From: a virus
Lineage: Duplodnaviria; Heunggongvirae; Uroviricota; Caudoviricetes
IMG/VR virus record: IMGVR_UViG_3300009502_000019
Length of the DNA stretch: 64,000 nucleotides
Reading direction: 5' to 3' (one strand)
Both the position numbers and the translations under genes were made by a program. The notes beneath the pieces were generated by a model, which saw nothing but the letters and a program-made list of their open reading frames with translations, was not told the DNA's origin and did no database searches. The first letter of the stretch is position 1. Each line of letters begins with the position of its first letter. Below, piece by piece: positions 1,018 through 32,960 of this stretch.

Positions 1018-1320
1018 TTAGAGATTTTCATTCTGTTTCCGTATTGCAATAATGTTGTTCTCGCCCATGATAACAACGCTGTCCATGCCCTTAACAGCCA
1101 CAGGAGTGTAATACTTACTGAACAAAACCTTGTCACCAACATTCACCACAACCGGCTTAACACTACCGTCTTCCATATCAACACCCGGACCAACTGCAAG
1201 CACATCACCTTCTGACGGCTTTTCTCTTGTAGTCTCAGGCATGAATATGCCTCCGGCGGATGTCTCTTCCGCCTTGTCCATCTTGATTACTACATTGTCG
1301 CGTAACGGTATTAGGTTCAT
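1018..1320 (-). CDS. groS: Co-chaperonin GroES (Cpn10)
   Basis: 100 aa, MNLIPLRDNVVIKMDKAEETSAGGIFMPETTREKPSEGDVLAVGPG..., typical GroES mobile-loop and roof motifs. Immediately upstream of groEL on the same strand (groES-groEL order). Confidence 0.85.
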   Translation of the reverse strand: MNLIPLRDNVVIKMDKAEETSAGGIFMPETTREKPSEGDVLAVGPGVDMEDGSVKPVVVNVGDKVLFSKYYTPVAVKGMDSVVIMGENNIIAIRKQNENL

Positions 1321-3977: not shown

Positions 3978-4493
3978 TTATTTTAGGCAGCACTTTTTGT
4001 GTTTTTTACCAGAACCACATGGACAAAGATCATTACGTCCAACCTTGTAAGCAGGCTTCGAAGCTCTGTCAAAGAGTGTCACCCCGTCAAGATGGTCACA
4101 TTCGTGCTGTAGTATAAAAGCCTCCATGCCGTAAAAGATTGCACGACGGCTCTCACCACTATCAAAGTCAAGCCACGAACATGTGACTTGCATGTACCGG
4201 TCCGTGCTCAAACGGACTCCGGGGAAGCTCAAGCAACCTTCGTTTTCACTAACAGTCGGAAAATGGGTTGCCTCTATCTTCGGATTGACCATGTTGACAA
4301 ATAAGCCGAGCTCCAGTTTCACAACACAAGCCCTAACGTCCAATCCGATTTGATTCGCGGAGAGCCCTACTCCTGGAACAGGGCTCTCCGCTAGTTCGCT
4401 AGATAGCTTTGAAAACACGTCAAGAGACTTACACTCTTCAATAGTGGTCTCCCTACATGGTATTGTAAGCTTCTCGCGATCCTGAACTATCAT
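3978..4493 (-). CDS. def: Peptide deformylase with C-terminal SEC-C zinc motif
   Basis: 171 aa. The three PDF motifs are present: [16 protein letters not shown] and HECDHLDG. C-terminal [13 protein letters not shown] is a SEC-C metal-binding tail. Confidence 0.85.
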
Positions 4494-4497
4494 GGGG

Positions 4498-4947
4498 CTA
4501 CTTACCTGGAGTTTCTTCTGGAAGTTTCGGATATCTCTTCAACGGATCGTCAATGAGAGCTGGAGAGGCATCTGGCGGAAGATCATCCTCAATGAAATCT
4601 TCCATAGTAACGATCTGAGTGGGTGTAAGACGAACGCCAGCGTCAGAGAGCTTGCTTAACGGGAGCTTCCACAGATCGAGCTCAACCTCGTTTGCAAGAA
4701 CGTCTCCATACTCCTTCTCGAACACTTCCATGTTTTCTTTCGTAACCTGCATACCACCGCTCTTCTCGTCAGGAGCACCATACTTGCGGATAAGATCCAT
4801 TCTGACCTTTTCCACGTCTTCCATCTCTGAGGCGATCTTCTTCAAGTTCCTACTAACCGCATACGCCAACTTAATGGGCATCTGTGCTTGCATAATGGCG
4901 ATAAATCCAGACTGCGCCCCCTTAATTGTTCCTAGTTTCACTTTCAT
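4498..4947 (-). CDS. Hypothetical protein with C-terminal PLKRYPKLP motif
   Basis: 149 aa. The C-terminal tail [17 protein letters not shown] matches motifs in the RecA-like and SSB-like proteins. Confidence 0.5.
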
Positions 4948-4960
4948 TTTCTAACCTCCG

Positions 4961-5167
4961 TTATATTTTGTCTGGGATATATTCACCGGCCATATCCCTT
5001 AAGCCGTCAAAACCAAGAAGCAGCCATCTCTGCTCAACGTTCAGCAGGTCAAACCTGTCTTCCTTAACCTTAATGTAATCGAGTATATGCTGAAGCTCCG
5101 CGAGATCACTCGCAATAACCTCTACCTGCTCATCATTAGTGCTGTCGTCAAGAGTAACGATCCACAT
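4961..5167 (-). CDS. Hypothetical acidic small protein
   Basis: 68 aa ORF in an operon-like array. Confidence 0.35.
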   Translation of the reverse strand: MWIVTLDDSTNDEQVEVIASDLAELQHILDYIKVKEDRFDLLNVEQRWLLLGFDGLRDMAGEYIPDKI

Positions 5168-5342
5168 AACTAGTCCTTTCGCTTAACCCTTATCCTGCGG
5201 CCGTTCTTACTGAGCTTGTATCCATTCTGGTAAAGGCATATTTGATAGTAGATGCACCGCGGCTGCCCAAACCCTCCTGAACATACCAACGGGTTTCTCG
5301 TAACCACCACGTTGGTTATGTAATGACCAGCAGCACAGTCGT

Positions 5343-5993
5343 TCATATGAAATCACAGGTGCAGTCATACTTAGCTTCAACATCTAAGGCGAACTTATCA
5401 ACCTTTTCCCGTTCTTCCTCCGTAAGGCCCATAAAATACACCACAATGCGCCCAAACTTTTCCTTCATCTGAATAACCTTGTTCTCCTTCTTAGCCAGTG
5501 GGGCGCCCCAGTTCTTAACGACCTCATGATCAGGGTTACTCTCCACACAAAACCCTGTCTTAATGCTTCCCTTAGAGATGTGCATAAGCCCACTTTTACG
5601 AAGCCACTTCTCTACATCATCAAAGATCTTGTCATACCACTTACCAACCTGCCCACGCATCCTGTTATAAATTTTGCTGTCAATCACCAGACGCTCGTAG
5701 TCGTCTGACTTGTACCCGAGCGCCTTAAGCTCGTTAGACTTATCCTCTGACCTGACCCACTCTGACAGGTAGTACTCCTCTCCAGCATCATCAACACCCT
5801 GCAAAACTTTCCCGTCGTTATCCCGCATTGAGAGCCTGTGAATAATATCACCGTGCTTAAACTCCCCGTCGTCCCCGTTCTCGCTGAACAGCAAAACATC
5901 CCTACTGGGTATGTACTTCTTCTTGACCCAACCATCCACCATCTTGTCCGAGACTATTGACACCCAGAACCCAAAATCAACTTGTGTGCTCAT
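5343..5993 (-). CDS. Hypothetical protein
   Basis: 216 aa ORF; no recognisable motif. Confidence 0.5.
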   Translation of the reverse strand: MSTQVDFGFWVSIVSDKMVDGWVKKKYIPSRDVLLFSENGDDGEFKHGDIIHRLSMRDNDGKVLQGVDDAGEEYYLSEWVRSEDKSNELKALGYKSDDYERLVIDSKIYNRMRGQVGKWYDKIFDDVEKWLRKSGLMHISKGSIKTGFCVESNPDHEVVKNWGAPLAKKENKVIQMKEKFGRIVVYFMGLTEEEREKVDKFALDVEAKYDCTCDFI

Positions 5994-6247
5994 TTCTGCT
6001 CCTCCTCAAGTTCAAATACAAGCTTGTGGGGGCTATGCGGACGACTGGCACCCTTAATAATAACCTCGCCATCATTGCACGCCTCACACACTTCAACCAA
6101 ACGTGCTTCCTTTGGAACGTTAGCCAAATCAGCCATCAAGTCCATAGCACGCGTATTGTTATAAAATTCAATGATATGCTTAGTCCTAACTATTCGCATC
6201 GTCAAATCCTTCTTGTAGCTCACTTTACCCTCCGATCTTTTCGGCAA
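5990..6247 (-). CDS. Hypothetical protein
   Basis: 85 aa ORF overlapping the upstream gene's stop by 4 nt, suggesting translational coupling. Confidence 0.4.
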   Translation of the reverse strand: MPKRSEGKVSYKKDLTMRIVRTKHIIEFYNNTRAMDLMADLANVPKEARLVEVCEACNDGEVIIKGASRPHSPHKLVFELEEEQK

Positions 6248-6383
6248 ACATTACTGCTGCAGATCTCTAGATACTTTGTACACAGCAAAATAGTTTCTGG
6301 GTACGTCCCGTAAACATTACTTATCTCCTTACGGGTTCCGTTATCCGCGCACTCTCTAAGCTGTGTAACAAACGGCTTGTGAC

Positions 6384-6908
6384 TCATTTTAGCCATTGAG
6401 CACCACCAAACCTTCTACCATACTCGGCCAGTAGAAGCCCATCTGCGTCATCGAACCCCGTAAAGTCAATCTTCGGAAACGTCCGCTTTCCCACAGCTAA
6501 AGAAGCCTTCTTGAGCTCCGGGCCCTTGAGCCCTTCCGGAAGCATCTTCTTCTGCCACTCCTTACTATCAACGACACGATACCCAATCTTAAGACGCTCA
6601 ATAACAATCAGAGTGGCCTCATACGACCGAACAGCGGACTCAGTGGCCTTAAACCGTGTTGGGTTCACCATGGGCCGCTCCAGAAGCACAAAAGCCGGCA
6701 AAAGAACCTTGTTCACAGACAAAGCATAGTCAAGTATCTTCGTAAAAGCAGCCTCAAGAGCCGGCGTGTCAATTCGTGTAAAATACTGCTTCTGCTTTGT
6801 ATAGTGCAGGAGCTTCATAGTAGGAGTGCGACACAAGTGTGCCTCGCCGTTATCGTACACAGCACCAATTTGTCCAGAAATTCCATTGTCGATCCCGATA
6901 ATGGTCAT
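6384..6908 (-). CDS. RuvC-like Holliday junction resolvase (phage type)
   Basis: 174 aa. N-terminal IIGIDNGISG (catalytic Asp) and C-terminal DDADGLLLAEYG match the RuvC/RNase H-fold resolvase pattern seen in lactococcal-phage-type RuvC. Confidence 0.7.
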   Translation of the reverse strand: MTIIGIDNGISGQIGAVYDNGEAHLCRTPTMKLLHYTKQKQYFTRIDTPALEAAFTKILDYALSVNKVLLPAFVLLERPMVNPTRFKATESAVRSYEATLIVIERLKIGYRVVDSKEWQKKMLPEGLKGPELKKASLAVGKRTFPKIDFTGFDDADGLLLAEYGRRFGGAQWLK

Positions 6909-9850
6909 GAATCTCTCCTGACGTTCAGCGTGCTAATGCCATGTTCCTTCTTGACCACCCACACCTGATCGGCATAGCTACTAAGATTAAGCGCATGATC
7001 TATTACAAACACATTGCGGCTCTTACCCTCGCTGTAGAGTAGATCCGCCACAGACTCCTCGCCTGATCTGTCCAAAAACGAAAACACCTCATCAAGAATA
7101 ACAATTCCAAGTATACCAGATGGTACCTGGTACTTCTCTGACACGAACTTATTTAGGCCAAAACACAGCGATACATCAACGCGTCTCTTCTCTCCGCCTG
7201 ACAACGCCTCATACTTAGTCTCGTTGCCATTAAGACGAATAAGCATCCCGATCTTGTTACGCTCCTCACCGGCCTTAGTGGTCTTAGTCGGAGTCATCAT
7301 GATGCTCATGGTCCCGCCACTCACCGTAGACAAATACCCGTTAATAGTCGCATTAATATCATTGCAGAACCTGTCCAGAAGAACCGACCGGATGCCCTTT
7401 GGTGAGAAGGCTGTCTTCCAGAAAGAAAGCTTCTCGATCTTCTCCTCGGACTGTCTGATACGCGTACTGAATCTGCCCATAACTTCTTCAAGTATTTTGA
7501 TGGCCTCTTCTTTATCGTCCCTGTCTACTGTAAGCCCATGCTTCTCCTTGCGGATACCGTCAGCGCGTACCGAATACTCGTCTATAAATGACTTATGTCG
7601 CTCAATTTCACCACGCATACGTTCTTGTGCCATCTCGAGCTCGTGCTGCTTCGACAGCTGCTCTGTCTTTAGGCGGTTAAGCCTGGACAGCTCTGGACCG
7701 ATCTCAGACTCCTGCGCCTTGAAGCCGTCCTCCTTTGCGTCAAGCTGAACTAGCCTAAGCATTACATCTTTTAAAGCAGCTTCCTTACCCTTTAACTCCG
7801 CCTCAATAACAGTCCTGTCAGCATCGATCTGAACAAGATCGGACTCCTTGTCATTGATAAAAGAGTCCACGCTGTCCTCTGACACTGTGGATCCGCACTT
7901 GTCACAGCGGACACCTACCTGTGCCCCTCTGAGAACGTTTATCTCGCTCTCAATCTTCTTCCTAGACGCTTTCAAAGAGTCGAGCTCCACCTTCAAAACA
8001 ACCATTTTAGCAGAGCAGTCCCCCTGCTCCTTATGAACTAAGTCAACCGTCTCACGGATAGCCTCAAGCTTCTTGTGGATAGTTTCCTTAGCCTCCTCTG
8101 TCTCTCGTATCTTTGAGTCGTAATCAACCTTCTCAAAGGAAAGCTTGACAACCCCGTTAGACTTAAGCTCAGCGATCCCGTCTTTGTGTGTATCTATCGC
8201 TGCCAGGCACTCCTTAACTTTGTGCGCCTTTTCTTCGATAGCCCTCAGAACCCCATCAAGAACTGCCCGGGCTACGGCAAGGTCCTTCTCGGACTCAGTC
8301 TTAGCCCGCTCGTCCTTTAATATGTCCCCGCTTATCTTGGTCGTCTTCTGAAGAACCAGCTCCTGCAAGTCGTCATACTGATCAAACCCAAGAAGGTCCG
8401 TTATCATGCTCGTCTTCTCGGTGTCAGACATCTTAGCCATCATAAGGAGATTTTCCTGGCTAAAGTATACTGACGACAGGAACACGCTCTTATCGAACCC
8501 AAGAATGCCCTCCAGTAGCTCCTGAGCCTGCTTCTGGAGCATCCCCTCGGTAGGGAGCTTCGCCTGACCATTCTCGATAACCATGACTGACAAACCGCTC
8601 TTGCGACTTCTCTTAACGATCACATTTGAACCTCCAGCGTCAAGAAGAAGTTCAACAGAGCAGTCGTTCTGACCATTTCGTATAACATCATCTCCAGTAA
8701 GTCCCTTTGTGGTCTCCCCAAATAGGGCCCAGCATATTGACTCGCCTATTATGGAGCTCTTGCCACTCCCATTACTGCTAAACCCATCCGACTCTCCAGT
8801 AATGAGCGTGAAGCCACTCTCCGGAACCTTGTACTCCGCGGACTGAATGGACAAAAAATCTTGAATGGAAACCTTAGCCAGCCTTCCCTTGTAAAAGCTC
8901 TTCACAAACGACATCTTCTCATCCAAGATGTCCTTAACAAGATCAAAATATGTGTCGTCTTTTCCGTTGAGCTCTATCCACTCGTGCACTATCCCATGAA
9001 AGTCCTGCGCCTTGATCCGCTCCTTGAATGTGTCTGGAGTAACCACAGATATCACGTTCTCGTTTTCTATCTTTAGTCTGGTTCCGAACAACTTGTAGTA
9101 GTTCCCATCATCCTTAATGTCTTCAGGGCTGTTGACAGTGATGAACTCTGGGTAATCAAGCTTGTGGAAGGTGCAGGTGCCCTCGTCCGTGTCGACCGTC
9201 CATACCCCGCGGCGCCCGTCATCTCCGAATGTAAATGGCATCGGAGCTCCAATGATGAAGCAGTTCTCGCTTAGCTTCTGCATTTGGTGGATATGCCCAA
9301 ACGCTACAAATTTATTTTGGGAGGCCAGCCGGCGCCAGTTAGTTCCCTCGCCAAAGGTGTAATTACCCAACTGAGCGCCGACTGGAGTCTTATGAACAAC
9401 AACTAGATCATACCCCTTGACCTTCTCGTAATCGATCTCGTCCTGAAAATTGATCAGACACAGCTTTCCCTTACCGAGACATTCTGCATTAGGGAAGTCG
9501 AGTGGAAATGTTGCCCGGAACCCTTCAAGTATGTTCGTGAGCAGGTGGTGATCTTTTGGTGCAGTTCTTATAGGTGTGTCGTGATTGCCGCAGACAAAGA
9601 GTATCGGTGTTTCAAAACTTCCAAGAAGGTCCTTGCTTAGGTTGAGAACCTCGTTACTAATAGTGCCGACTGAATGCCCCCAGTCGCCACCATGAATAAT
9701 ACAATCGACCCGCTCTCTCTTAAAAACAGATACTGCCTGAAGAAAATTATCCCGCTGCTTTAAGAGTCTCTTTGAGATCCTGTTCTCGTGACATTGGCCG
9801 AACGCTTGCCAATTCTGAAAATGGGTGTCCGATACAAGACCAAAACGCAC
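6905..9850 (-). CDS. Fused SbcD(Mre11)-SbcC(Rad50) nuclease-ATPase, single polypeptide
   Basis: 981 aa. N-terminal MPE motifs DTHF, GGDWGHS, GNHD and GHIHQ. Then Walker A GSGKSS, long coiled coils with a CDKCGS zinc-hook CxxC, ABC signature LSGGEKRRV, Walker B ILDEVFSFLD and an H-loop VIDHA. Confidence 0.85.
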   Translation of the reverse strand: MRFGLVSDTHFQNWQAFGQCHENRISKRLLKQRDNFLQAVSVFKRERVDCIIHGGDWGHSVGTISNEVLNLSKDLLGSFETPILFVCGNHDTPIRTAPKDHHLLTNILEGFRATFPLDFPNAECLGKGKLCLINFQDEIDYEKVKGYDLVVVHKTPVGAQLGNYTFGEGTNWRRLASQNKFVAFGHIHQMQKLSENCFIIGAPMPFTFGDDGRRGVWTVDTDEGTCTFHKLDYPEFITVNSPEDIKDDGNYYKLFGTRLKIENENVISVVTPDTFKERIKAQDFHGIVHEWIELNGKDDTYFDLVKDILDEKMSFVKSFYKGRLAKVSIQDFLSIQSAEYKVPESGFTLITGESDGFSSNGSGKSSIIGESICWALFGETTKGLTGDDVIRNGQNDCSVELLLDAGGSNVIVKRSRKSGLSVMVIENGQAKLPTEGMLQKQAQELLEGILGFDKSVFLSSVYFSQENLLMMAKMSDTEKTSMITDLLGFDQYDDLQELVLQKTTKISGDILKDERAKTESEKDLAVARAVLDGVLRAIEEKAHKVKECLAAIDTHKDGIAELKSNGVVKLSFEKVDYDSKIRETEEAKETIHKKLEAIRETVDLVHKEQGDCSAKMVVLKVELDSLKASRKKIESEINVLRGAQVGVRCDKCGSTVSEDSVDSFINDKESDLVQIDADRTVIEAELKGKEAALKDVMLRLVQLDAKEDGFKAQESEIGPELSRLNRLKTEQLSKQHELEMAQERMRGEIERHKSFIDEYSVRADGIRKEKHGLTVDRDDKEEAIKILEEVMGRFSTRIRQSEEKIEKLSFWKTAFSPKGIRSVLLDRFCNDINATINGYLSTVSGGTMSIMMTPTKTTKAGEERNKIGMLIRLNGNETKYEALSGGEKRRVDVSLCFGLNKFVSEKYQVPSGILGIVILDEVFSFLDRSGEESVADLLYSEGKSRNVFVIDHALNLSSYADQVWVVKKEHGISTLNVRRDS

Positions 9851-9867
9851 AGCGTCCTCCGGAATCG

Positions 9868-10638
9868 TCAGGCGAAACAGTACATTTCTTTCCTGACTAC
9901 TCTCTTTATGAATTTAACGGCGTTATAAAAACTGTAATGTGCTACTTCCTTGTAATGTGCTTCATTCCTCAGTTCGTTCCACTGGAGCTTCAAGTTCACC
10001 CTGTCCAAAAACATTTGCCTTGCCAGGGAGCTCTTCTGAGCCAACAGAATAGCTGTATGTGCCACTAGATCCTGATAGTACACCTCATCAAAGGGGCGCA
10101 TCTGAATAAGCGAATCCACGAGGTCAACGTCAAGGCTGATCGTGTCAGATTGGTAGGTCTTCTTACGTCGAATGGGTGCGTCCTTGGACGGCTTTGTTTT
10201 TAATAGCCTCCCATGCTCGCGTCTTTCAGCCATCTCGTCCTCAGTCTCGGTAACGATATAGCTTTTTCCGGACGTAAACCCGTATTCAGATTTCTTTCCA
10301 TCTTTATCAACAGAGGAATATTCCAAAATACCTTCCCAATCGTTCCGCTTGCGATAAAGGAGAGCATATAGAGACCTTTTAAAACTGTTCTGCTTGTGAG
10401 CTAGCGACTCGTACACTCTTTTTTTCATATCCCACTCAAGAATGTAGGCCTCTTGGAGAAAGTCAATTACGGATCGGTGGTACACGAAGGAGTATCTTAC
10501 GATTAGCTGCAGCCACTGCTTTGTTAGCGGGAACTTTTTTTCATCTACGTGCGGGATTGTTGCATTGCCGGCAGACTCCGGCATGAGTCCGTCTATCTGG
10601 TCAGTATCTTCGTAATCTGGGGGGTACGATATTGACAT
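9868..10638 (-). CDS. Hypothetical protein
   Basis: 256 aa ORF with an AT-rich promoter-like region upstream (10639-10810). Confidence 0.5.
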   Translation of the reverse strand: MSISYPPDYEDTDQIDGLMPESAGNATIPHVDEKKFPLTKQWLQLIVRYSFVYHRSVIDFLQEAYILEWDMKKRVYESLAHKQNSFKRSLYALLYRKRNDWEGILEYSSVDKDGKKSEYGFTSGKSYIVTETEDEMAERREHGRLLKTKPSKDAPIRRKKTYQSDTISLDVDLVDSLIQMRPFDEVYYQDLVAHTAILLAQKSSLARQMFLDRVNLKLQWNELRNEAHYKEVAHYSFYNAVKFIKRVVRKEMYCFA

Positions 10639-10810
10639 TATTCTACTCGCGAATTAAAAACCTATAATAAGAATATACTAACATCTAGTCCTAAAGAAAC
10701 TAAAAAGAGTTCGCCCCCCTTCTTTGCTGCTGAATGATCAAAGTTGTGCTATGAGAATTGCGTCATGCTAGCATAAAAACCAAAAAAGTCAAGGATCTTT
10801 TTAAATATTT

Positions 10811-11920
10811 TTAATCTTTTTCCTCTTCCTCGACCTTTTCCACTACAGGCGCCACAGTAGACAGAGAACTAAGCCTGTCCAGGTTCTTCTTTACATACTC
10901 CTTAAACTCACTCTTCCGGACCTGCTCTCCGGCGATCTCGACGTAACCACGCTTCTCACCGTCCTTAGCTATCCCATTCGTAATCATGTTTTCCAAGAGA
11001 CCGCTGAACGGATCCACACCCTTATTGAAATAGATATCCAAGCAAGACTCCTGAAACGGCATGGCGATGCGGTTCTTGGACCCCTTTGCTGTTGACATTA
11101 CGCCGACAACACGGTCCGGGTTGTCCACATCCTTGATCTTTCCGGAATAGTTCAGCTCAAGCCTCACAGACGCTGAAAAAGGCATACCAGAGCCTCCAGG
11201 AGTTGTCTTGGGGTTGCCGAACATTACACCAATCTTGGTGGTAACGTGGTTGGCCACTACGTGCATGATATTGCCCTTCTTCATGTACCTAGCAGAGTTC
11301 CTTAGAGCTGCCCGTATTTGCTTAGCCTTCGTCATATCGGGCTTCTCTAGCATCACCTCCTGCTCGTGCCTCGTAGACAACAGCGCAAGGCTGTCCAGAG
11401 CGATCAAAATAGGGCACTCAGTATCCTTCTCCCAAATAAGATCCACGAGCCCCGGCTTGCTCTTTCCGTTAGAGTCCTTCCACCCAAGAAAAACCTTCTC
11501 AAAGTGTTCCTCAACTGTAAGCGAGCTGAGAAGAATGAGCGCACTGCTGTCAATGCCGAGCATGGCCCCAAACTGCTCCGTGTAAGCGTCTTCGGTATCG
11601 TCCAAAATGGCAATGCCACCCATCTGCTGAACAGCGGCAATCCAGTGGTATATGAGAAGCGACTTACCTGTGGAAGGGTCACCAAACACTTCAATAACGC
11701 GCCCGAAAGGGAGCCCTCTAGTGTAGTCGCCTGAAATTACTTTGTTGAGAGCGTAGTTTCCGGAGTCAAGCCAGAAATCTACCTTAGACTCTGTGCCTGA
11801 CGCGACCCCCTCTACTTTGCTAATAAGGCTTGATATGAACTTCGGATCAATGCCTTTCACACCTTTATCGACCACCGGCAGCTTCGGATGTCTCTTCAAA
11901 GGCTCTTCGACCTGTGTCAT
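10811..11920 (-). CDS. RecA/UvsX-family recombinase
   Basis: 369 aa. Walker A GDPSTGKS in a RecA-like core. The N-terminus carries EEPLKRHPKLPVV. Confidence 0.85.
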   Translation of the reverse strand: MTQVEEPLKRHPKLPVVDKGVKGIDPKFISSLISKVEGVASGTESKVDFWLDSGNYALNKVISGDYTRGLPFGRVIEVFGDPSTGKSLLIYHWIAAVQQMGGIAILDDTEDAYTEQFGAMLGIDSSALILLSSLTVEEHFEKVFLGWKDSNGKSKPGLVDLIWEKDTECPILIALDSLALLSTRHEQEVMLEKPDMTKAKQIRAALRNSARYMKKGNIMHVVANHVTTKIGVMFGNPKTTPGGSGMPFSASVRLELNYSGKIKDVDNPDRVVGVMSTAKGSKNRIAMPFQESCLDIYFNKGVDPFSGLLENMITNGIAKDGEKRGYVEIAGEQVRKSEFKEYVKKNLDRLSSLSTVAPVVEKVEEEEKD

Positions 11921-11993
11921 TGTATCTCCTTGATTACGTTTATTGAATGGTTAGGGCGGGGATAGCTACCCCCGCCCAACTGCCAGCACCAAA

Positions 11994-12965
11994 CTACATA
12001 TTCAAAAACTTGTCCCTGCACGATGCCTTGAATGTGCACGGAACGCACTCAGGGCGCCTTGGTCCGTACAGCTCTCCGAAACACTCGGGGGTTTCTCCTC
12101 CTTCGTCCGAAGTACTCTCCACGGATTCGACAACAGGAAGCTTTTGGTGGGTCTTCAAAGGCTCTTCATGCTTCACCTCAGCCACTGGAACAGGAAGCTT
12201 TTGGTGTCTCCTCATTGGCTCTTCCTGATCAGCCGGGTGCTTCTCCACCGCAGCCGCAGCACGTACAGCACCAACATCAACGGCACCTTCGCCTCCCTCC
12301 AATGTAATCTTAAGCTCTTCATAAGATTTAGCTTTTGGAACCTCGTTTTTAAGAAGTTCTATCGCCTCCTTAAAGTTCTTCGGAAGATATCCACGTGCCG
12401 AAGACACTGACGGGTCTGGAGCCGCGCTGTAGCTTGCGTAGCCACTCTGGGATTGCTTGGCACTTACTTTTGTAATAACAACATCCCTACCAGTGTCCAA
12501 GTCGAGAATGTCGCCCCACTTTGGGTTCTCTATAAACCCCTTAAGATCCGTATGGACCTGAATACCGGCCTCCATAATCTGGATGCCTTTATCCTTGTTG
12601 TTCAAGTCAACTACGTTAAACAAATAACGAGTCTTCTTGCTGATCTTCCTGGCTAGCTTCTCGTCTTCGGGGTCTTTTGTCGCCCAAAGCTTTGCGGCGA
12701 CCTCACAGATAGGGCACCGTATCTTGGTTGTGACCGTCTCCCAAGTCTTGGGACACACCTCAGCCGTCTTGCTACCCTCAACACCAAGCTGGTAGTGCAT
12801 CATGTACTTGTACCCAAAGTACGGTATGTTGCTGGAGAAGTACTCAAGTGAAGGAGGCAGAATCCTAATGTTGTTGTCGCCATCCTGCAGCTCAAACCTG
12901 TTCTCCTTACCGGCCTTCTTTTCTGACTGCTCTCTCATCTTTACAATGTCTAAGCCCATCTGCAT
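11994..12965 (-). CDS. gp32-like single-stranded DNA-binding protein
   Basis: 323 aa. Collinear with T4 gp32: NNIRILPP, an H/C...C-x13-CPICE zinc subdomain and a KTRYLFNVVDL core. The C-terminal tail has tandem EEPMRRHQKLPVP / EEPLKTHQKLPVV repeats. Confidence 0.7.
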   Translation of the reverse strand: MQMGLDIVKMREQSEKKAGKENRFELQDGDNNIRILPPSLEYFSSNIPYFGYKYMMHYQLGVEGSKTAEVCPKTWETVTTKIRCPICEVAAKLWATKDPEDEKLARKISKKTRYLFNVVDLNNKDKGIQIMEAGIQVHTDLKGFIENPKWGDILDLDTGRDVVITKVSAKQSQSGYASYSAAPDPSVSSARGYLPKNFKEAIELLKNEVPKAKSYEELKITLEGGEGAVDVGAVRAAAAVEKHPADQEEPMRRHQKLPVPVAEVKHEEPLKTHQKLPVVESVESTSDEGGETPECFGELYGPRRPECVPCTFKASCRDKFLNM

Positions 12966-12974
12966 TACCCCCGT

Positions 12975-13448
12975 TTAATTGTTGTGTGCCCTAACTTTGT
13001 CAGTATTGATCCCGAAATCATGTAAGCTAATCTCCTGGCGTTTAGAAGCTCCGAGTTGAATCAGCATATCCTTCCGTTGCTCCAACGCCTTAACAAAAGA
13101 CTTGAGGATCCCGAGCTGGCGCTCTGCTTCAATGAGCTCTTCTGCCATCATCTGGTACCTCTTATCTCGTACAATGGCGGACTTAATAACAGCCTCAGTG
13201 ACCTTAGTCTCCTTTAGCTCGAGCCTCTTCTGAGCGTCAAGGTTCGCCTCCAAAACCGAAAAAGCTAACTTCTTCTGCTCAACGTCAGCTACTGCAAATT
13301 CGGAGAGAGCCGCAAAGTACGCATAAGTGCTGGGCTGCTTAATGAACTCGTCGTTGAGAGTCGCATCGTTTATCTGCATGACCTCTCTGAGAGTCCCGTC
13401 AAACACCTTATCACCAACATTGACTCTGACCTTCATGTTGAAATCCAC
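12975..13448 (-). CDS. Hypothetical protein, possibly a UvsY-like mediator (speculative); GTG start
   Basis: 157 aa, predicted helical. Sits between the SSB and DNA polymerase genes. Preceded by promoter-repeat copy 1 and a GGGGG RBS. Confidence 0.4.
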   Translation of the reverse strand: MDFNMKVRVNVGDKVFDGTLREVMQINDATLNDEFIKQPSTYAYFAALSEFAVADVEQKKLAFSVLEANLDAQKRLELKETKVTEAVIKSAIVRDKRYQMMAEELIEAERQLGILKSFVKALEQRKDMLIQLGASKRQEISLHDFGINTDKVRAHNN

Positions 13449-13526: not shown

Positions 13527-15914
13527 TTAGTTCACCTTGACCTCCTCTAGTTCGCCCCAGTTCTTGCCGAACGAGTAATCAAACTTCATAGGCACTTTTA
13601 GCCACGAAAAGCTTCTAGGAAGGTCAATGGAACATACACTGTTCATCTCATGAGCAACATCGTAAAGAGGCTCCTCGGGGCCCTCAAACACTATTGAGTC
13701 ATGGACCGTAAGAATCGTCCTGACGGGTAGCTTATACTTGGCTATGATTCGTCGCATCCTTACCATCGTAAACAAAATCATGTCTGAACTACTGCCCTGA
13801 ACAGGACTGTTTACGGCCTGCCTAGTGATATCATCAGGTACATTGGTTGCTAATACGCCTTTTGCCTCTGGAAACCGGCGCATCCTTCCTGTAGGATACT
13901 CCACAAACCCGCATTTTGACAAAACACGTCTGGTCCTGGCGTACCAGGGTTCAAAACCCGTATACGTTGAGAAGTACGCGTTACGAAAAGCCCTACACTC
14001 TTCAATCGACAACTTAACCCCATACTTCGTCTCTGCGTACACCTGGAACCCTTCTGCAGACTGCCCGTAAACAAAGCCAAAATTGATCCCCTTAGCGATT
14101 TGACGCTGATCCTTGGTTACGTCCTTCTCTGCAACGTGGAGGGCCTTAGAGGCCGTTAAACGATGAATATCATGCCCATCCTGGTAGGCTTGTATCATTG
14201 TCGGCTCCGGAGCAACAGAACAAGCCACCCTGAGCTCCATCTGACTGGCATCTGCCTGAAGCAGAATACATCCGGGAGAGGCCACAAACATCTTCTTTAC
14301 AGCCTTGTCCCTAGGGATGTTCTGGAGGTTTGGCCCTGAGCTGGAAAGCCGTCCTGTGCGGGCACCACAGATATTGAAATTACCGTGAAGCCTACCATCG
14401 TCCTTTATAAGCCCCGGAAGCTTCTCCACATAGGTTGAAAGCATCTTCTCATGCTTACGTATTCTGATTAGATACGTCGCCAGCTTATACCCCTGCCTTG
14501 ACAGGTTCTCAAGAACCTCATTATCGGTACTTAGTAATCCAGACTCTGTCTTCTTGAGAACAGGATATTTCAGTACCTTAAACAAAAGATCACGTAACTG
14601 CTTAGTAGAGCTTAGGTTAACATCTTTTGACTCAGGGTATGTGTCAGCGATAGCCTCATACACGGCCTCGAGCCTTCTGTGAATATCTCCAGCAAGTGCT
14701 GTACTCGCGGCAGTGTCTATGAGAACCCCTTCAAGCTCCATACCAACAATAACCTCAATCATCGGCATCAAAACAGTCTCAAACAGGCTCCACATTACCG
14801 GGCTAAGCCGGATCTCGGGCTCAAACTTGCGAAACAGCCCCATGGTGTTGTTGCAGTCTTCACAGTTGTAAATGCACAGCTTTACCATGTCCTTCGTAAA
14901 CTCGAACATGCACCCATCCAGGTACTCTGCTGACAGCTGCTTAAGGCCTATCGAGTGCCTGTTCTCGTCAAGTAAAAACGCCATAACCATCGTATCAGCG
15001 TAAAAGTTCTTATAGGAAACCCCCATCTTCACGAGAACCTTAAGGTCAAACGCGGCATTGTGTGCGATCTTCTTAGACGGTCCTGACATGACAGTCCTCA
15101 CTAGATCCCAACACTTATCACGGAACTCAATGTTAACGTTCTCAGGATGGTCCAAAGGAACCGAGTAACACTTCCCTCCACCAAGGCCAAATCCGCAACT
15201 CCATAGATTCATCGCCTTGTCAAAAACGTCAAGCATCTCATTAGTCTCAACGTCAAAACTAATGAGCTCTGGTGAGGCCAACACAAGATCGCTATACGCC
15301 GCGGCAAGCTTATCTTCGGTGTCCACAACGATAAAGTTGTTATCCGAACCAAGATCGTTGTGCAGATACCGGTGGGCCGTATTAAGATCTTTTCTAAGCC
15401 TTGGTAGGGAAGTTGGATTACGAATACAATATGCCGGGTCGATAACAGGAAGAAAAGTCATGCCCATAGTCTGCATGAAATTACCGGCCCTACTCATGAT
15501 GCGTTCTTTGGGAAAAAACGCCTCCAGAGCTGCTGCTCCGACAAGCACAACAAGCTTCGGCTTTAGATCCTTTAGCTCATTAAAAAGATACATGCCAGTG
15601 CAAAGCTTCAGAGCCTTCTTCTTTGGAGGCTCATTCGCTGGCGGGTTGCACCGGCATGCGTTCGTAAAAGTTACTTGTGATACGTTAAAACCTACCTGTG
15701 ATAGTGTCTTTCTGAACAGCTTTCCGCTCTCACCGCCAAATGGAACCCCTTCAACAGCGTCAATCCCTGTTGGAGCATCACCAACAACAACTAAATCATT
15801 GTTGCAGGTGTACGAAGGAACAAAAATACGCGACAAGTATGGGCACTTGGCGCATTCTTCTCGCTTAGTTTTGTCTTCATTCTTAGCAGATATGAGCTTT
15901 GCAACATTGACCAC
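13527..15914 (-). CDS. Family A DNA polymerase with N-terminal UDG-like domain and 3'-5' exonuclease
   Basis: 795 aa. PolA motifs: ADASQMELRVAC (motif A), RQIAKGINFGFVYG (motif B), VHDSIVFE (motif C). Exonuclease motif ISFDVETNE. N-terminal ~170 aa has a family-4 UDG-like GDAPTG...GESGKLF motif. Confidence 0.9.
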   Translation of the reverse strand: MVNVAKLISAKNEDKTKREECAKCPYLSRIFVPSYTCNNDLVVVGDAPTGIDAVEGVPFGGESGKLFRKTLSQVGFNVSQVTFTNACRCNPPANEPPKKKALKLCTGMYLFNELKDLKPKLVVLVGAAALEAFFPKERIMSRAGNFMQTMGMTFLPVIDPAYCIRNPTSLPRLRKDLNTAHRYLHNDLGSDNNFIVVDTEDKLAAAYSDLVLASPELISFDVETNEMLDVFDKAMNLWSCGFGLGGGKCYSVPLDHPENVNIEFRDKCWDLVRTVMSGPSKKIAHNAAFDLKVLVKMGVSYKNFYADTMVMAFLLDENRHSIGLKQLSAEYLDGCMFEFTKDMVKLCIYNCEDCNNTMGLFRKFEPEIRLSPVMWSLFETVLMPMIEVIVGMELEGVLIDTAASTALAGDIHRRLEAVYEAIADTYPESKDVNLSSTKQLRDLLFKVLKYPVLKKTESGLLSTDNEVLENLSRQGYKLATYLIRIRKHEKMLSTYVEKLPGLIKDDGRLHGNFNICGARTGRLSSSGPNLQNIPRDKAVKKMFVASPGCILLQADASQMELRVACSVAPEPTMIQAYQDGHDIHRLTASKALHVAEKDVTKDQRQIAKGINFGFVYGQSAEGFQVYAETKYGVKLSIEECRAFRNAYFSTYTGFEPWYARTRRVLSKCGFVEYPTGRMRRFPEAKGVLATNVPDDITRQAVNSPVQGSSSDMILFTMVRMRRIIAKYKLPVRTILTVHDSIVFEGPEEPLYDVAHEMNSVCSIDLPRSFSWLKVPMKFDYSFGKNWGELEEVKVN

Positions 15915-20742: not shown

Positions 20743-22185
20743 CTAGCAAAACTCTACTTCAAACTGCTCTTGCTTGTATATAGACATTCTTTCTTTCGAA
20801 TGCTTAAGTAAGTATTTATTACCGTGGTCGCAAAAATCGTACACCGACACAACATTTTCTCCCTCCTTACGGCGAAGACTCCTACCTATCCTCTGAAGCA
20901 ACTGCCGGCGCGACTTCTTACCAGCAAGAAGGATTAACACTTCAATCCGGCTGATGTCAATTCCCTCGTCAATGATGTTTGTACTAATAAGTATCTGTAG
21001 TTTACCGGCCTTGAAGTCAGACAACGCCTGAGCCCTGTGGGCAGCTTTTCCTGATATGAACACAGAACTTATCCCGTTATTACTTAGTAGCTGCTCAACA
21101 ATCTCCCCATGCTCAAGGTAGTCCACCACGATCAAAGTTGACTTACCTGGGTTGTTCTTGATGATCTCGACGGCCTTTCCGTTGCGCTCGCTGTTCTGCA
21201 CGATGCCGAGCTTGACTACCATCTCGTATACCTTCTTCATGAGCTGCTGGCCAGAATAGAGCTCGTCTTTGGCCTCGAGCTCCGCCTTGGCCATTCCGAT
21301 AACGCCGCGAACCTGGCTTGAGACGTCCATCTCATACATGAAGATCTTGGGCTTCGCTGACACGTCAAGCGCTATCAACTCGTCGTTTGAGATCTTGTAG
21401 ACCACGTCTCCCAAAAACTGCCTCACCAAAACTCCGTTGTATTCGTTGGCAGGTGGCACCGTGCCACTGAAGCCCCAGCGGTAAGGCGCCGGGCATGCTT
21501 CAAGTACAGCAGTGAACTGCGCCGCCTGAGCATGGTGAACCTCGTCCTGTATAACGCACTGGAGACTTTTAAAATAGTCATCAACCTCCTGGTCAGCTCC
21601 GAGTCTATTAACAAGAGTTGTAATCATAGCTACAGTAACTGGTCTTATAAGAATGTCTTTCGCCGTAATGAAGCCGCACTTAAGTCCCGTGTACCTTTCA
21701 ATATACTCCACAGTCTGCTTCAACAGCTCCGACCTGTGTGTTAACACGAGAGTTGGCGCCGGAGCAAGCTTCTTTATCAACCCTGAGAAAATGGCCGTCT
21801 TCCCAGCGTTTGTGGCAGCCTCAATTAAGCAGTTCTTGTTAGCAATGCACTCGTCGATCGCCTTTAGCTGGTAATGCCGATCAGGATCATTAACGTCAAT
21901 TGTGTTGAGCTCAAGGCGTCCCTGGTCCACCTTCGGAAACTTCCTATTATCCACAACGTCAATCTTACGGAGCTTCCCGGACCTTAGCACATAGGACAAC
22001 AGCCCTATCGGAAACACACCCGTCCTAATGTCAAACATCCGTTTCTTACCGTCCCACTGGCCTCTCTTGTACGCCATCGAGTACTTAGCCCCTGGAACGT
22101 CAAAAGTGAGCACACTCCTTATCCACATAAGCTCTTCCCTGGTTCCCTGAACAAAACACTTACTTGGGCATAATAGGATTATCAA
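20743..22185 (-). CDS. SF2 DEAD/DEAH-box helicase
   Basis: 480 aa. Walker A TNAGKTAIF, DEAH box DEVHHAQA and motif VI QRIGRSLRR. Confidence 0.8.
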   Translation of the reverse strand: MIILLCPSKCFVQGTREELMWIRSVLTFDVPGAKYSMAYKRGQWDGKKRMFDIRTGVFPIGLLSYVLRSGKLRKIDVVDNRKFPKVDQGRLELNTIDVNDPDRHYQLKAIDECIANKNCLIEAATNAGKTAIFSGLIKKLAPAPTLVLTHRSELLKQTVEYIERYTGLKCGFITAKDILIRPVTVAMITTLVNRLGADQEVDDYFKSLQCVIQDEVHHAQAAQFTAVLEACPAPYRWGFSGTVPPANEYNGVLVRQFLGDVVYKISNDELIALDVSAKPKIFMYEMDVSSQVRGVIGMAKAELEAKDELYSGQQLMKKVYEMVVKLGIVQNSERNGKAVEIIKNNPGKSTLIVVDYLEHGEIVEQLLSNNGISSVFISGKAAHRAQALSDFKAGKLQILISTNIIDEGIDISRIEVLILLAGKKSRRQLLQRIGRSLRRKEGENVVSVYDFCDHGNKYLLKHSKERMSIYKQEQFEVEFC

Positions 22186-22340: not shown

Positions 22341-23216
22341 TCATCGTCTAGCATACAGGGCAAGCTCAAACTTGTCTTTAATACTGACTTCTGTAGGAGT
22401 TGTCAGGATCTTCCTCAAGTAGTCTCTGTCAGCCAGATAAAGCTCGTTAGGATCATCATTCCCAGGGAAAAAAACTATCTTCGTGTGCACACCAGCCACC
22501 TTTAACCGCGTATACATCGCAATAGCTTTGTCTTTGATGTCCCCGTCCAGAGCAACCACAACCTCTTTAAACCCTATCGTCTTAATCTTGTCCACCTGCT
22601 CGTCAGAAATCCCAGACCCAAGCAGCGGAGTAACCGTAAATCCAAGTTTGTGAACTGAAATCGCGTCAAAAGCTCCTTCAACAATATATAAGCGCAGTCT
22701 GTTAACACTCCCCAAGAAGTACGGAAGTATTTTCTTTTTATCTATGACCGGGTTCAAATATCTACCTCCGAAAAACATGTGGCGAGAAACAAAGTAAACT
22801 ACTTTACCTCCCTCATAAAGAGGGATAATGAGCTTACCCCTATAGCGCCCTTGAGTGGCTGTAAGAAGATTATAAGTACCTATGTCACTCGCTGTAAGAC
22901 CACGACTCTCCAAGTACTCTTTATTTTTCTCATAGTCAACCGGAACAAACCCGTCAAGACTAAGTTCTTCCTTGCTTACACTAACAACTGCTTCACTAGA
23001 CTTCCAGTCACTGTCGTCAAACTCAAGGTGTTGATCCTTAAAAAACTTCCTTACCGTTCCCTTAGCATCACAGACCCAACAGTGGAACACACCCCTACTT
23101 GAATGCACCTCAAGGTTGTACTTTGTACCACCACAGTACGGGCAGTCTTTTAAAATAATCTGCTCCCTATTGACCTTGTGCTTATACTGCCTCTTAAGAG
23201 TGTCCTGCCACATCAA
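22341..23216 (-). CDS. DNA primase (CHC2 zinc finger plus TOPRIM)
   Basis: 291 aa. Zinc finger CPYCGG...HCWVC. TOPRIM motifs EGAFDAIS and LDGD. Confidence 0.8.
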   Translation of the reverse strand: MMWQDTLKRQYKHKVNREQIILKDCPYCGGTKYNLEVHSSRGVFHCWVCDAKGTVRKFFKDQHLEFDDSDWKSSEAVVSVSKEELSLDGFVPVDYEKNKEYLESRGLTASDIGTYNLLTATQGRYRGKLIIPLYEGGKVVYFVSRHMFFGGRYLNPVIDKKKILPYFLGSVNRLRLYIVEGAFDAISVHKLGFTVTPLLGSGISDEQVDKIKTIGFKEVVVALDGDIKDKAIAMYTRLKVAGVHTKIVFFPGNDDPNELYLADRDYLRKILTTPTEVSIKDKFELALYARR

Positions 23217-23711: not shown

Positions 23712-24080
23712 TCATCTTGACGCCTTCCTCCTTAAAAATAACGGGGTTGTCTCACCAACCCATCCGCCTTCTACGTTAAAGGACATATGTTCGATCGCAT
23801 CCTCCTCTGTCATACCCTCTCCCACAAGGACCTTAATGCATTCGTCGTAGTCATAACACGCCAGAGGCTTATTGAACTGGCAGGCGATTCCTACAAAAGC
23901 GTCCTCAAACCCGTCGGCTAGCAGAATCCTGTCCTCTTCACTGTACCCTAAGTCTTCAATGAACTCGTTAATGGAATCCCGCTTCCTACCAGCAGTACCA
24001 CGAGGAATTACTTCCGGGATCTGTGGAGATACTTTTTTCTTCTTTTTCATCGTCGGAAGTGCTTTTTTATTCTTTTTCAT
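23712..24080 (-). CDS. Hypothetical protein with lysine-rich N-terminus
   Basis: 122 aa ORF. Confidence 0.4.
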   Translation of the reverse strand: MKKNKKALPTMKKKKKVSPQIPEVIPRGTAGRKRDSINEFIEDLGYSEEDRILLADGFEDAFVGIACQFNKPLACYDYDECIKVLVGEGMTEEDAIEHMSFNVEGGWVGETTPLFLRRKASR

Positions 24081-24501
24081 TAGATGCCTCCAAGTAACGT
24101 ACCGCTTCGTGTAAAACTAAAATAGAGTCGCCGCTGTACCCTAGCATAAAGTTGCACCGAGCGCATAGTAAGCCCCTGATAGCTCCAGTAGTATGGTTGT
24201 GATCAACGCTAAGCCGTTTTTTTCCTGGGCATGTTTCAAAACATATAGCACATCTACCACGCTGTTTATCAAACAGCCTATCATACTCTTCTAAACCTAT
24301 ACCATAGTTATACTTAAGAGCTTCTCTTCGTTTTGATTCGGCTCCTTTAAGCGACTTACGGTATTGACGCCTAAGTTCCTTACACTCCGGAGAACTATAG
24401 TATTTTCTCCTCAACTCTTTGACTCTATCAGTCCTCTGATACTGTCTTTCGCGCTCTTTTACCTCCGGCAATTTGCGGCGCTGTCTATTGTACTCTCGCA
24501 T
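24067..24501 (-). CDS. Endonuclease VII-family HNH nuclease
   Basis: 144 aa. CAICFETC...LSVDHNHTTGAIRGLLCARCNFMLG matches the Endonuclease_7 signature. Confidence 0.7.
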   Translation of the reverse strand: MREYNRQRRKLPEVKERERQYQRTDRVKELRRKYYSSPECKELRRQYRKSLKGAESKRREALKYNYGIGLEEYDRLFDKQRGRCAICFETCPGKKRLSVDHNHTTGAIRGLLCARCNFMLGYSGDSILVLHEAVRYLEASNEKE

Positions 24502-25180: not shown

Positions 25181-25414
25181 TTACTCAAACTCCTTTAACT
25201 CTTGATCCTTAATAACTACATGAATACGCTCATCATCGTGCTTTGACCCAAACATACCGAAGTGCTCCATAACCGCCCAAAGAAGCTTACGACCATTCCT
25301 GGCTTCCGAGGCATGCTCGTCATCTTCAACAGCAATAAACCTCTCGCTCTTAGTGTCAGCGTCCTCGTATCGCAAAACAAACCCGTTATCCGCGTCTTCA
25401 ATCGTAAGTCTCAC
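25181..25414 (-). CDS. Hypothetical small acidic protein
   Basis: 77 aa ORF. Confidence 0.4.
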   Translation of the reverse strand: MRLTIEDADNGFVLRYEDADTKSERFIAVEDDEHASEARNGRKLLWAVMEHFGMFGSKHDDERIHVVIKDQELKEFE

Positions 25415-26871
25415 CTAGTCCTCCTGTCTTGTGCTTCCCGTTCACGTACCCTGTTTAATGCTTCTACTCCAACAATGTCTATGATGTACTTTGGCCAGTT
25501 ATCAGATGCTACGGCCTCAGGGTCCTTCCACGGGTGTATCTTAACAAGATCCCACGGAGCACTATAGGACCTTAAACTCCTGTCAAAGTCGACAAGCCAT
25601 CCGTAAAAAGGGTCCCACCCGTTTCGAGACTTCCCGACACAAAATATAGTCGGGCTAACGTCTTTATTTGCCCCGTCGTACTGACGCACAATTAGAAGTG
25701 TTGTATCCGCGATCTTGGCGATATTGCTCGATCCGTGGAAATCATCATTGTCAGGCATCTTCTTGTCTCTTGCCTTACGGCGCAGGTGGGAGAACATAAG
25801 CACAGGAATGCCACGCGCCTGAGTTAGGTCCTTGACCTTCCGCATGATCCCAGAGAGCTGAGAAGCCTCGGACGAGTCGTCTTCCATTCCGAAGTAATGC
25901 AAGTGGTCTACGACGACAAGGTCTGCATCCTGTATCCTACCGAGCTGCTGGAGTAGCTTATCAATGCGAAGGTCTGACTCGTTCTTGCCGTAGATGACCA
26001 ACTTACCCCTAAGTGCTGCCAACTCCTTCTCAGCAATCGCCTCAAAGCGCTCAATCCCTCGCAACCCATTGGCAAGATAAAGCGGGTAGGACATTGGCAT
26101 CCCCTTATTGGGGTTCTCGGGTGAGAAGTATTCCCTGGCGATGATCTCGTACTTGAACCGAGATATAACCTCATTCTTTGAACCTTCCAAGCAAATCAAG
26201 TATGTCTTCTTCCCAGCCATCGCATTGATGCGTGCTGTGTCGGCGCCGAATTGAGTTTTCCCGACACCACTCTCGGCTCCTACTACAACAAGTTCCCCTG
26301 GAAATATTCCAAGCAAGCACTCATTCAAAGCCGGTACAGAGTACTTGACTAGTTTGTCCGGTGTAATCCTAGCTAGGTCCCTGTTCTGCCGGTCTATAGC
26401 CTGATCAATCTCCATGAAAAACGAGTTGTCAAACGAATCGCCAAGTGGCTTCCTGGGTGCCTTCTCAACCGTCTCCATGAACTGGTAAGCCAACTGCCTG
26501 TAGTCGCTCCCTGGAGTGATCTTGTTGACGATCTTGATGAGGTTGCGCTCAAATACGAACCGGCCAAGCTCTTGGTAGACCTTGTCGATCAGGACTTCTG
26601 TACTTACATCGGTTACTACGGCCGCGATATCGTTTAAGGTTTTCTCGTAGGTCTTAATATTAGCCTTCTCATGGTCCGGGAGATCCCCGAGCATCATGAG
26701 CATGTCGCCGAACGTAGGGCGTTTGAAGTACTTGTCGTCGAAGCGGTAGGCTAGCTCAAGCAGGTTGCTCTGCACGGCATTTTCGAAGATGTCCTTTGGG
26801 AGCTTCCCGCAGAACTCGGCAAATACAGCGTCGTCAGTAAGGAACTTCTGCCAGAATGGTAGCCAGTTCAT
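25411..26871 (-). CDS. DnaB-like replicative DNA helicase
   Basis: 486 aa. Walker A GAESGVGKTQF, Walker B LVVVDHLHY, RecA-like C-terminal domain and an N-terminal helical domain. Confidence 0.85.
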   Translation of the reverse strand: MNWLPFWQKFLTDDAVFAEFCGKLPKDIFENAVQSNLLELAYRFDDKYFKRPTFGDMLMMLGDLPDHEKANIKTYEKTLNDIAAVVTDVSTEVLIDKVYQELGRFVFERNLIKIVNKITPGSDYRQLAYQFMETVEKAPRKPLGDSFDNSFFMEIDQAIDRQNRDLARITPDKLVKYSVPALNECLLGIFPGELVVVGAESGVGKTQFGADTARINAMAGKKTYLICLEGSKNEVISRFKYEIIAREYFSPENPNKGMPMSYPLYLANGLRGIERFEAIAEKELAALRGKLVIYGKNESDLRIDKLLQQLGRIQDADLVVVDHLHYFGMEDDSSEASQLSGIMRKVKDLTQARGIPVLMFSHLRRKARDKKMPDNDDFHGSSNIAKIADTTLLIVRQYDGANKDVSPTIFCVGKSRNGWDPFYGWLVDFDRSLRSYSAPWDLVKIHPWKDPEAVASDNWPKYIIDIVGVEALNRVREREAQDRRTR

Positions 26872-32702: not shown

Positions 32703-32706
32703 CTCC

Positions 32707-32946: not shown

Positions 32947-32960
32947 GCTTCACCCCCCTG

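Follow-up and report, generated by a model that had tools for sequence, protein, structure and literature searches.

A short peptide shared by RecA, the gp32-like SSB and a DUF1617-like protein of one jumbo phage species: a candidate docking motif

We asked why three otherwise unrelated proteins of one phage should carry the same short peptide. The peptide was found between positions 4,498 and 12,965 of a 64,000-nucleotide stretch of DNA from the Caudoviricetes record IMGVR_UViG_3300009502_000019 (the window, as we call the whole stretch hereafter), and its carriers are a RecA/UvsX-like recombinase, a gp32-like single-strand DNA-binding protein (SSB) and a small protein of 149 residues, named here ORF149 after its open reading frame (ORF). 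The four copies, all encoded on the minus strand, define an 11-residue consensus, (D/E)(D/E)P(L/M)(K/R)x(H/Y)(P/Q)KLP, in which P3, K9, L10 and P11 are invariant, position 6 is free, and positions 1, 2, 4, 5, 7 and 8 each admit two similar residues. RecA has EEPLKRHPKLP at residues 5-15 (11876..11908). The SSB has EEPMRRHQKLP at residues 248-258 (12192..12224) and, 19 residues after it, EEPLKTHQKLP at residues 267-277 (12135..12167). The ORF149 copy, which includes KRYPKLP, occupies residues 133-143 of 149 (4519..4551). An earlier reading of this DNA, referred to below as the original prediction, had placed the peptide on these proteins, twice on the SSB, and all four copies are indeed present, at coordinates that were right to a few bases. 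The best explanation appears to be a short linear motif of recent origin, held by selection at the amino-acid level, and we consider it somewhat more probable than the reverse that it works as a docking motif with one shared partner.

Coincidence is a negligible explanation for the four copies. The strict pattern [DE][DE]P[LM][KR]x[HY][PQ]KLP has exactly four matches in the six frames of the window, for which the analytical chance expectation is 9e-7, and the back-translated pattern likewise gave 4 matches in the window versus 0.00 expected from 100 dinucleotide shuffles. When the RecA copy was taken as given, three other 11-mers scored at least 48 (BLOSUM62), whereas none did in 30 shuffles. 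A profile built on the four copies and run over the window and about 20 kb of flanks gave 46.5-56.2 for the copies themselves, and the next best segment, in a non-coding frame, reached 27.8. The strength of the case lies in the repetition. Indeed, in an all-against-all comparison of 11-mers a single motif pair was borderline (49-50 versus shuffled maxima of 39-51), and chance is excluded because the motif occurs several times. The portion of the genome scanned was about 84 of about 203 kb, that is, the window and about 10 kb beyond each end. Neither the strict motif nor the profile found further copies in the two flanks, and the random spread over many unrelated proteins that would have undermined the original prediction is not what we see, the strict motif being confined in this portion to three proteins. 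The contigs of the same phage retrieved for the 8.6-kb motif region, which come from several samples, are 99.96-100% identical over the stretch covered, and both of the strain contigs that were scanned carry the strict motif. Altogether, the peptide shows the features expected of a short linear motif, namely a small length, few fixed positions, a disordered context, modular placement and conservation at the peptide level.

We then considered where each copy sits in its carrier. The recombinase gene (10811..11920, minus strand) encodes 369 residues, of which residues 43-303 match the Pfam family RecA (PF00154, E=2e-37), and the protein also matches the UvsX-like phrog_97 (E=2.6e-59). Comparison with homologues places the motif copy in a 23-residue N-terminal extension, MTQVEEPLKRHPKLPVVDKGVKG (residues 1-23; 11852..11920, minus strand), that precedes the conserved start IDPKFISS and that close homologues do not have. 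An AGGAG ribosome-binding site (11926..11930, minus strand) lies 5 nucleotides upstream of the RecA ATG (11918-11920), and the extension, motif copy included, is therefore translated. Among the 120 RecA homologues listed, none carries the motif; those that are 70-84% identical begin directly at MPIDxKF(I/Y) with no extension, and two relatives have N-terminal extensions of unrelated sequence. The closest of all (84% identity) has the plain start, and the SSB linker encoded on the same contig is also devoid of the motif. Many distant phage RecA homologues (P0120-P0139, 36-42% identity) have Lys/Ala-rich N-terminal extensions of 30-60 residues, such as KKKAKKKAKKKKAK, so that add-ons at the RecA N-terminus recur, with different sequences. 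Two observations on this gene stand apart from the motif. The RecA gene of a 216-kb relative (L001 11083-13317) is split by an intein with a LAGLIDADG endonuclease and encodes 744 residues, compared with about 350. In addition, a perfect GC-rich hairpin without a T-run, GGGCGGGG-gtagctat-CCCCGCCC (11954-11977, minus strand), separates the SSB stop codon from the RecA ribosome-binding site and may be a transcript-stabilising or attenuating structure.

The SSB gene (11994..12965, minus strand) is a 323-residue ORF with matches to Pfam gp32 (PF08804, E=1.7e-12) and phrog_1192; the database form of the protein (P0001) starts two codons later and has 321 residues. Its AlphaFold model matches the gp32 cores of T4 and RB69 (Foldseek to 1GPC, E=2e-8, TM-score 0.69 normalised to target) and is confident in two parts, residues ~21-225 and a C-terminal module at ~290-323. 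The His/Cys3 zinc-binding site of the core, made of H57, C71, C84 and C87, is invariant in 24 homologues and, judging from position, we infer that it is equivalent to T4 H64/C77/C87/C90. Both motif copies are located in the linker between the two folded parts (residues 228-286; 12108..12284, minus strand), which is modelled as disordered, with a predicted local distance difference test score (pLDDT) below 50 at residues 228-258 and 260-286, and is hypervariable, being rich in indels and unconserved in the 24-sequence alignment. The C-terminal module (residues ~290-323; 11997..12098, minus strand; pLDDT 79-87) has four invariant cysteines, C295, C307, C310 and C316, and the consensus CFGxxYGPRRxECxxCxxKxxCRxKFLE, with the spacing C-x11-C-x2-C-x5-C. 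This 4-Cys module ends the SSB homologues P0001-P0024 and has no match in Pfam. Its CX2CX5C spacing recalls the Fe-S ligands of EndoIII, MutY and AddB, zinc being equally possible. The protein itself finishes with ...CRDKFLNM and has no acidic A domain. Because the folded, conserved module comes after the linker, both SSB copies lie inside the protein, 44-63 residues short of its C-terminus, and the C-terminal tail to which the original prediction had assigned them has to be replaced by an internal linker. The motif is absent from all 23 other SSB homologues, which are 33-55% identical, P0003 alone showing a weak echo at the same place, EPVRTHAPQNKVV.

The third carrier, ORF149 (4498..4947, minus strand), is a small helical, DUF1617-like protein (phrog_1401, E=2.7e-11). 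In its model, residues 1-120 form a helical domain (pLDDT about 80), which is followed by a disordered C-terminal tail at residues 121-149 (4501..4587, minus strand; pLDDT about 40), which holds the motif and lies beyond the family domain. ORF149 belongs to a large family (1957 representative clusters at E<=1e-3), whose members are typically about 120 residues long and share a domain that ends near ORF149 residue 122. The motif is absent from the 150 family representatives examined. In the closest homologue, 72% identical where the two align, the ORF149-deformylase gene order is the same and the tail is different, ...DLPKDAEILVPPVVPPADIKK. The orthologue encoded by the 216-kb relative has FIEDDAPPVK as its last residues. 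The family name comes from a tblastn match of ORF149 to a Clostridium phage protein that is called 'DUF1617 family protein' at NCBI (E=5e-8); the Pfam scan of ORF149 itself returned no family at E<=0.01, and with 58 family members, at E<=0.1, DUF1617 did not rank with the top families. The fold matches of ORF149 were exclusively to uncharacterised phage proteins. In all three carriers, then, the copy is found on an add-on segment that relatives lack or fill with other sequence. The idea of a modular peptide appended to protein termini holds for the RecA extension and the ORF149 tail and fails for the SSB; the further idea that the bearers are recombination and replication proteins holds for RecA and the SSB and finds no support in ORF149, whose distant annotated relatives, one of them named DUF1617, sit in siphophage tail modules.

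Is it the peptide or the underlying DNA that has been kept? The 33-nucleotide cores of the four copies are identical pairwise at 22-28 of 33 positions (5-11 differences), and the 49 pairwise mismatches fall 6, 10 and 33 at codon positions 1, 2 and 3, respectively. The pooled proportion of synonymous differences (pS) is 0.63 and that of nonsynonymous differences (pN) 0.15. Even the invariant residues are encoded variably, by CCT, CCA and CCG for proline and by CTG and CTT for leucine. The motif thus appears to be conserved as a peptide, with strongly diverged synonymous sites, and the partial DNA conservation pointed out in the original prediction does exist, but as a likeness that shared codons alone impose. 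Such a combination of strong synonymous divergence and a kept peptide is evidence against two rivals, a very recent neutral copy and an element acting as DNA or RNA. An element of this kind would be a regulatory site, a target for recombination or for an endonuclease, or a small repeat, translated by coincidence, and it could draw on the partial DNA likeness, on the presence of GAAGAGCCTTTGAAGA in two copies and on the proximity of the copies to gene boundaries. However, the excess of third-position mismatches is the opposite of what such an element should show, all four copies lie on the coding strand and share one reading frame with respect to the peptide, and Tandem Repeats Finder detected no DNA repeat, not even the 57-nucleotide duplication in the SSB; the sole structured element nearby is the separate hairpin described above. 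We regard this explanation as very improbable.

Neutral copying accounts for more of the data. According to this explanation, local duplication or gene conversion placed copies of a short segment of the SSB linker in frame nearby; these have yet to decay, and the peptide would have no function. The SSB pair is in tandem, 57 nucleotides apart, and is the most alike of all (pS 0.24), which fits a 57-nucleotide tandem duplication; the RecA copy lies 259 nucleotides downstream of SSB copy 2 and shares with it the 16-nucleotide identical run GAAGAGCCTTTGAAGA. Moreover, the motif is present in a single species with no variation among contigs, and disordered tails tolerate insertions. Neutral decay, however, would spread mismatches evenly over the codon positions and break the peptide, contrary to the pS and pN values. 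The ORF149 copy is about 7.3 kb from the other copies and retains all fixed residues with only 22-26 of 33 nucleotides identical to them, and three independent in-frame placements in dispensable segments are unlikely to have occurred without selection. Therefore, neutral copying as the whole explanation seems to us improbable, if less so than a DNA or RNA element; the identical run and the likeness of the SSB pair suggest local copying followed by maintenance.

How far does the motif extend beyond this genome? The original prediction had called for its search on proteins of related phages, and none was found in the SSB, RecA and ORF149 homologues counted above. More generally, no copy was present among 296 other fetched proteins, almost all of them homologues of the three carriers. 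The motif is therefore not family-wide but private to one phage species, and it appears to be a recent innovation of that species, gained on three proteins. A motif scan of IMG/VR gave one match only, in a non-coding frame antisense to a 567-residue ORF, which is a chance match; IMG/VR yielded no relatives of the SSB, and megablast revealed no near match among the INPHARED phages. In 185,579 representative bacterial and archaeal genomes, of two codon-restricted motif scans whose patterns covered part of the Leu, Arg and Lys codons, one returned 0 hits and the other 1. This single hit, DDPVRGHQKLP in a metagenome-assembled genome of Thermoleophilia, is outside the strict motif. Finally, 0 of the 120 hits of a metagenome scan with a degenerate back-translation fitted the strict peptide. 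These hits (L006-L125) have a strongly conserved GDEP(F/M)Q(F/I/M)(H/Y)QKFP about 100 residues into a widespread bacterial protein family of ~360 residues, an unrelated enzyme motif.

The genome scans bear on the possibility, which is a sub-case of docking, that the phage has copied a short linear motif of its host and thereby hijacks one of the host's hub proteins. Adaptation to such a hub would look like what is seen here, a gain that is sudden, lineage-specific and spread over several proteins, and mimicry of host motifs is described as widespread in eukaryotic viruses (PMC10132805). The two scans of prokaryotic genomes, with their single non-fitting hit, speak against it, and we hold a host origin of the motif to be quite improbable. 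A different kind of sharing was also considered, namely lineage-specific peptides common to the SSB linker and the RecA C-terminal tail of the same genome. The tails of the SSB, RecA and ORF149 relatives are often alike (PVVE, APV, VAPV). With 11 genomes paired by contig, we compared same-genome with cross-genome likeness, and the proposal was rejected (permutation p=0.26); since same-genome pairs are no closer, these tail resemblances are due to a shared Pro/Val/Glu/Lys composition.

We infer docking from the short-linear-motif features listed earlier, the disorder of the carrier segments being that of the SSB and ORF149 models. In the proposed mechanism, the peptide would bind one receptor surface on a shared partner in an extended, proline-kinked (polyproline-II-like) form. 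A helix is excluded by the prolines at positions 3, (8) and 11. Residues L/M4, H/Y7 and L10, spaced i, i+3 and i+6, would line one apolar face with basic flanks, and the receptor would be a groove with an acidic rim. RecA, the SSB and ORF149 would thus be recruited to the same hub, or would compete for it. Because of the analogy with T4 gp32-Dda and T7 gp4-polymerase, a replication or recombination enzyme, or the SSB, is our first guess for the partner. The candidates are the UvsW-like helicase, the DnaB-like helicase, PolA and the SSB itself, through its core or its 4-Cys module, and each of them taken singly is an unlikely choice.

Several points weigh against docking to one partner. A single phage species, represented by near-identical contigs, is the only known source of the motif, so that conservation between species is lacking, and the estimate of selection covers just 11 codons in four paralogous copies. 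One of the three carriers, ORF149, has no known DNA-related role. No partner emerged from the analysis: a Pfam scan of 40 window proteins found no SH3, WW, TPR or similar peptide-binding domain. AlphaFold left the SSB motifs undocked on the SSB fold, and the alignment gave no information for docking.

Some of these points would suit a peptide that is functional in another way, as a protease or adaptor site (degron), as the site of a modifying enzyme, or as a sorting or 'sticker' signal for a compartment or condensate. Conservation at the peptide level and location in disordered segments are compatible with any such recognition process. Many bacterial degrons lie near protein termini, and two of the copies are within 15 residues of one. 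Some jumbo phages sort proteins into compartments, and the genome considered here is of jumbo size (~203 kb). ORF149, for which no DNA role has been shown, agrees better with a general signal than with a replisome contact. Nevertheless, the internal position of the SSB copies, with a folded module after them, would be unusual for a terminal degron, and three motif-bearing proteins in the portion scanned are few for a general sorting signal. No gene for a compartment shell or a dedicated protease was found, although none was searched for. Overall, a role of this other kind is unlikely in our judgement, but it is the rival that we take most seriously.

If the docking motif is accepted, a bolder version can be formulated, in which a private motif-receptor pair rewires the machinery that handles single-stranded DNA: the SSB and its clients, RecA and the DUF1617-like protein, would compete for one receptor, which could be the SSB 4-Cys module, the SSB core or a helicase. 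We consider this version doubtful. Were it true, the interaction logic would be opposite to that of the classical hub, in which an SSB tip meets pockets on its clients, and we would be seeing it no more than one species-level step after it arose. For now the finding has a modest impact, given that the motif is confined to one uncultured phage. The interest of the locus is that the same new peptide stands on three unrelated proteins in one species-level lineage, with the ancestral states visible in relatives: no extension on RecA, another tail on ORF149 and another linker in the SSB. A partner, if found, would show how a single evolutionary step can rewire the network of recombination and replication interactions of a phage, and would provide both a function for the large DUF1617-like family and a small orthogonal peptide-receptor pair.

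The genomic setting of the carriers is that of a jumbo phage. The window is part of such a genome, since an SSB identical to the one described here is encoded on a 202,599-bp contig, and relatives are found on contigs of 215-216 kb. RecA and the SSB belong to a module that also includes a RuvC-like resolvase (6384-6908), an SbcCD fusion (6905-9850), a UDG-PolA protein (13527-15914), the UvsW-like helicase (20743-22185), a primase (22341-23216) and the DnaB-like helicase (25411-26871). Between PolA and the SSB, here and in all three large relatives, is a gene for a conserved helical protein of 157 residues (12975-13448, minus strand; phrog_1069/2058), in a position like that of a recombination mediator. 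The possibility that this product is UvsY-like found no support, as it matches neither UvsY nor any PDB chain, Pfam family or NCBIfam family. Two paralogous proteins with an endonuclease VII domain (24067-24501 and 27956-28507, minus strand) share (I/V)RGLLCxxCNF, the second-best inter-protein 11-mer match in the window, and are likely homing or recombination endonucleases. The replication module of a 114-kb relative contains QueD/PTPS, FolE, QueC and radical-SAM QueE-like genes (L004 2346-4649, 14343-14987); such genes of 7-deazaguanine (queuosine-type) synthesis suggest DNA base modification in this phage group.

Near ORF149, a peptide deformylase with a C-terminal SEC-C zinc motif (3978-4493) is encoded beside the phage's own chaperonin genes, GroES (Cpn10; 1018-1320, minus strand) and GroEL (Cpn60; L134 10984-13129, just past the left end of the window). 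Genes for RNA repair and NAD salvage are also present (28587-29534, 35453-36919, 37766-38527 and 52199-54358 in the window; L137 5404-6765), and comprise an RNA ligase, RtcB, a CCA-adding/poly(A) polymerase-like enzyme with an HD domain, a NAMPT-like nicotinamide phosphoribosyltransferase and a PRPP synthetase. Three adjacent membrane-associated genes (31445-34634, minus strand) encode an SPFH/Band 7 protein, a TPM-domain protein and LemA.

How does the candidate docking motif compare with peptides that are known to recruit DNA-processing proteins? The nearest case is T4 gp32, whose C-terminal A domain recruits partners, its peptide 248-270 binding the Dda helicase (PMC11551737). The SSB described here is of the same family, with the gp32 fold, a four-residue Zn site and a flexible region after the core, and in T4 that region likewise holds short peptides that recruit DNA-processing proteins. 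The differences are nonetheless substantial. T4 gp32 ends in its acidic A domain, whereas the same end of the present SSB is made of a variable linker and the 4-Cys module, and the motif is internal, ahead of that module. The T4 region provides an amphipathic helix and an acidic tip; here the peptide is basic, contains prolines and is unrelated in sequence. Furthermore, T4 clients carry the receptor, whereas RecA and the third protein, as putative clients, carry the same tag as the SSB.

Phage T7 offers a second parallel. The tails of its gp2.5 SSB and its gp4 protein are interchangeable. The acidic C-terminal tails of the gp4 helicase-primase bind the gp5 polymerase (PMC12593628). In both systems similar flexible segments on different replication proteins would reach one partner surface, which in T7 consists of basic patches of gp5. 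The T7 tails, however, are acidic, are found strictly at the C-terminus and have an aromatic residue as their last one, whereas the motif described here is net basic in its core, contains prolines and occupies N-terminal, internal and near-C-terminal positions. As for bacteria, the E. coli SSB-Ct (DDDIPF) serves as a hub, and the model that gives this role to PxxP motifs has been contradicted experimentally for E. coli (PMC10164576); that model puts the proline motifs in the E. coli SSB linker (PMC7145534). The likeness consists in the use of a disordered SSB region as a platform for protein interactions. There is no acidic-aromatic tip here, the motif being internal and net basic, and PxxP is present in two of the four copies only, the SSB copies reading QKLP. 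Clamp-binding peptides have the consensus QL[SD]LF in bacteria, and the PIP box reads Qxx[ILM]xx[FY][FY]; by inspection, (H)QKLPVV and (H)PKLPVV do not fit, since they have neither Leu at position 2 nor the terminal aromatics. The original prediction was therefore right to set the peptide apart from acidic SSB tails and from clamp-binding motifs.

Eukaryotic-type proline and basic docking motifs, such as the SH3 class I pattern [RK]xxPxxP and the MAPK D-motif (a basic cluster followed by Phi-x-Phi), are similar in pattern only. All copies have a basic residue and then L-P-(V), and this likeness suggests extended binding to a groove with an acidic rim. The class I pattern fits RecA (KRHPKLP) and ORF149 (KRYPKLP) and fails for both SSB copies (RRHQKLP and KTHQKLP), in which Q replaces the first P; moreover, no SH3-like or kinase receptor was found among the scanned window proteins. 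To our knowledge, short linear motifs have been well studied in eukaryotes and their viruses, and have hardly been catalogued in phages except for SSB tips, clamp-binding peptides and the T7 and T4 tails. The locus is thus best read as a system of an already known kind, the peptide-mediated wiring of phage DNA-metabolism proteins, in which the motif itself is new.

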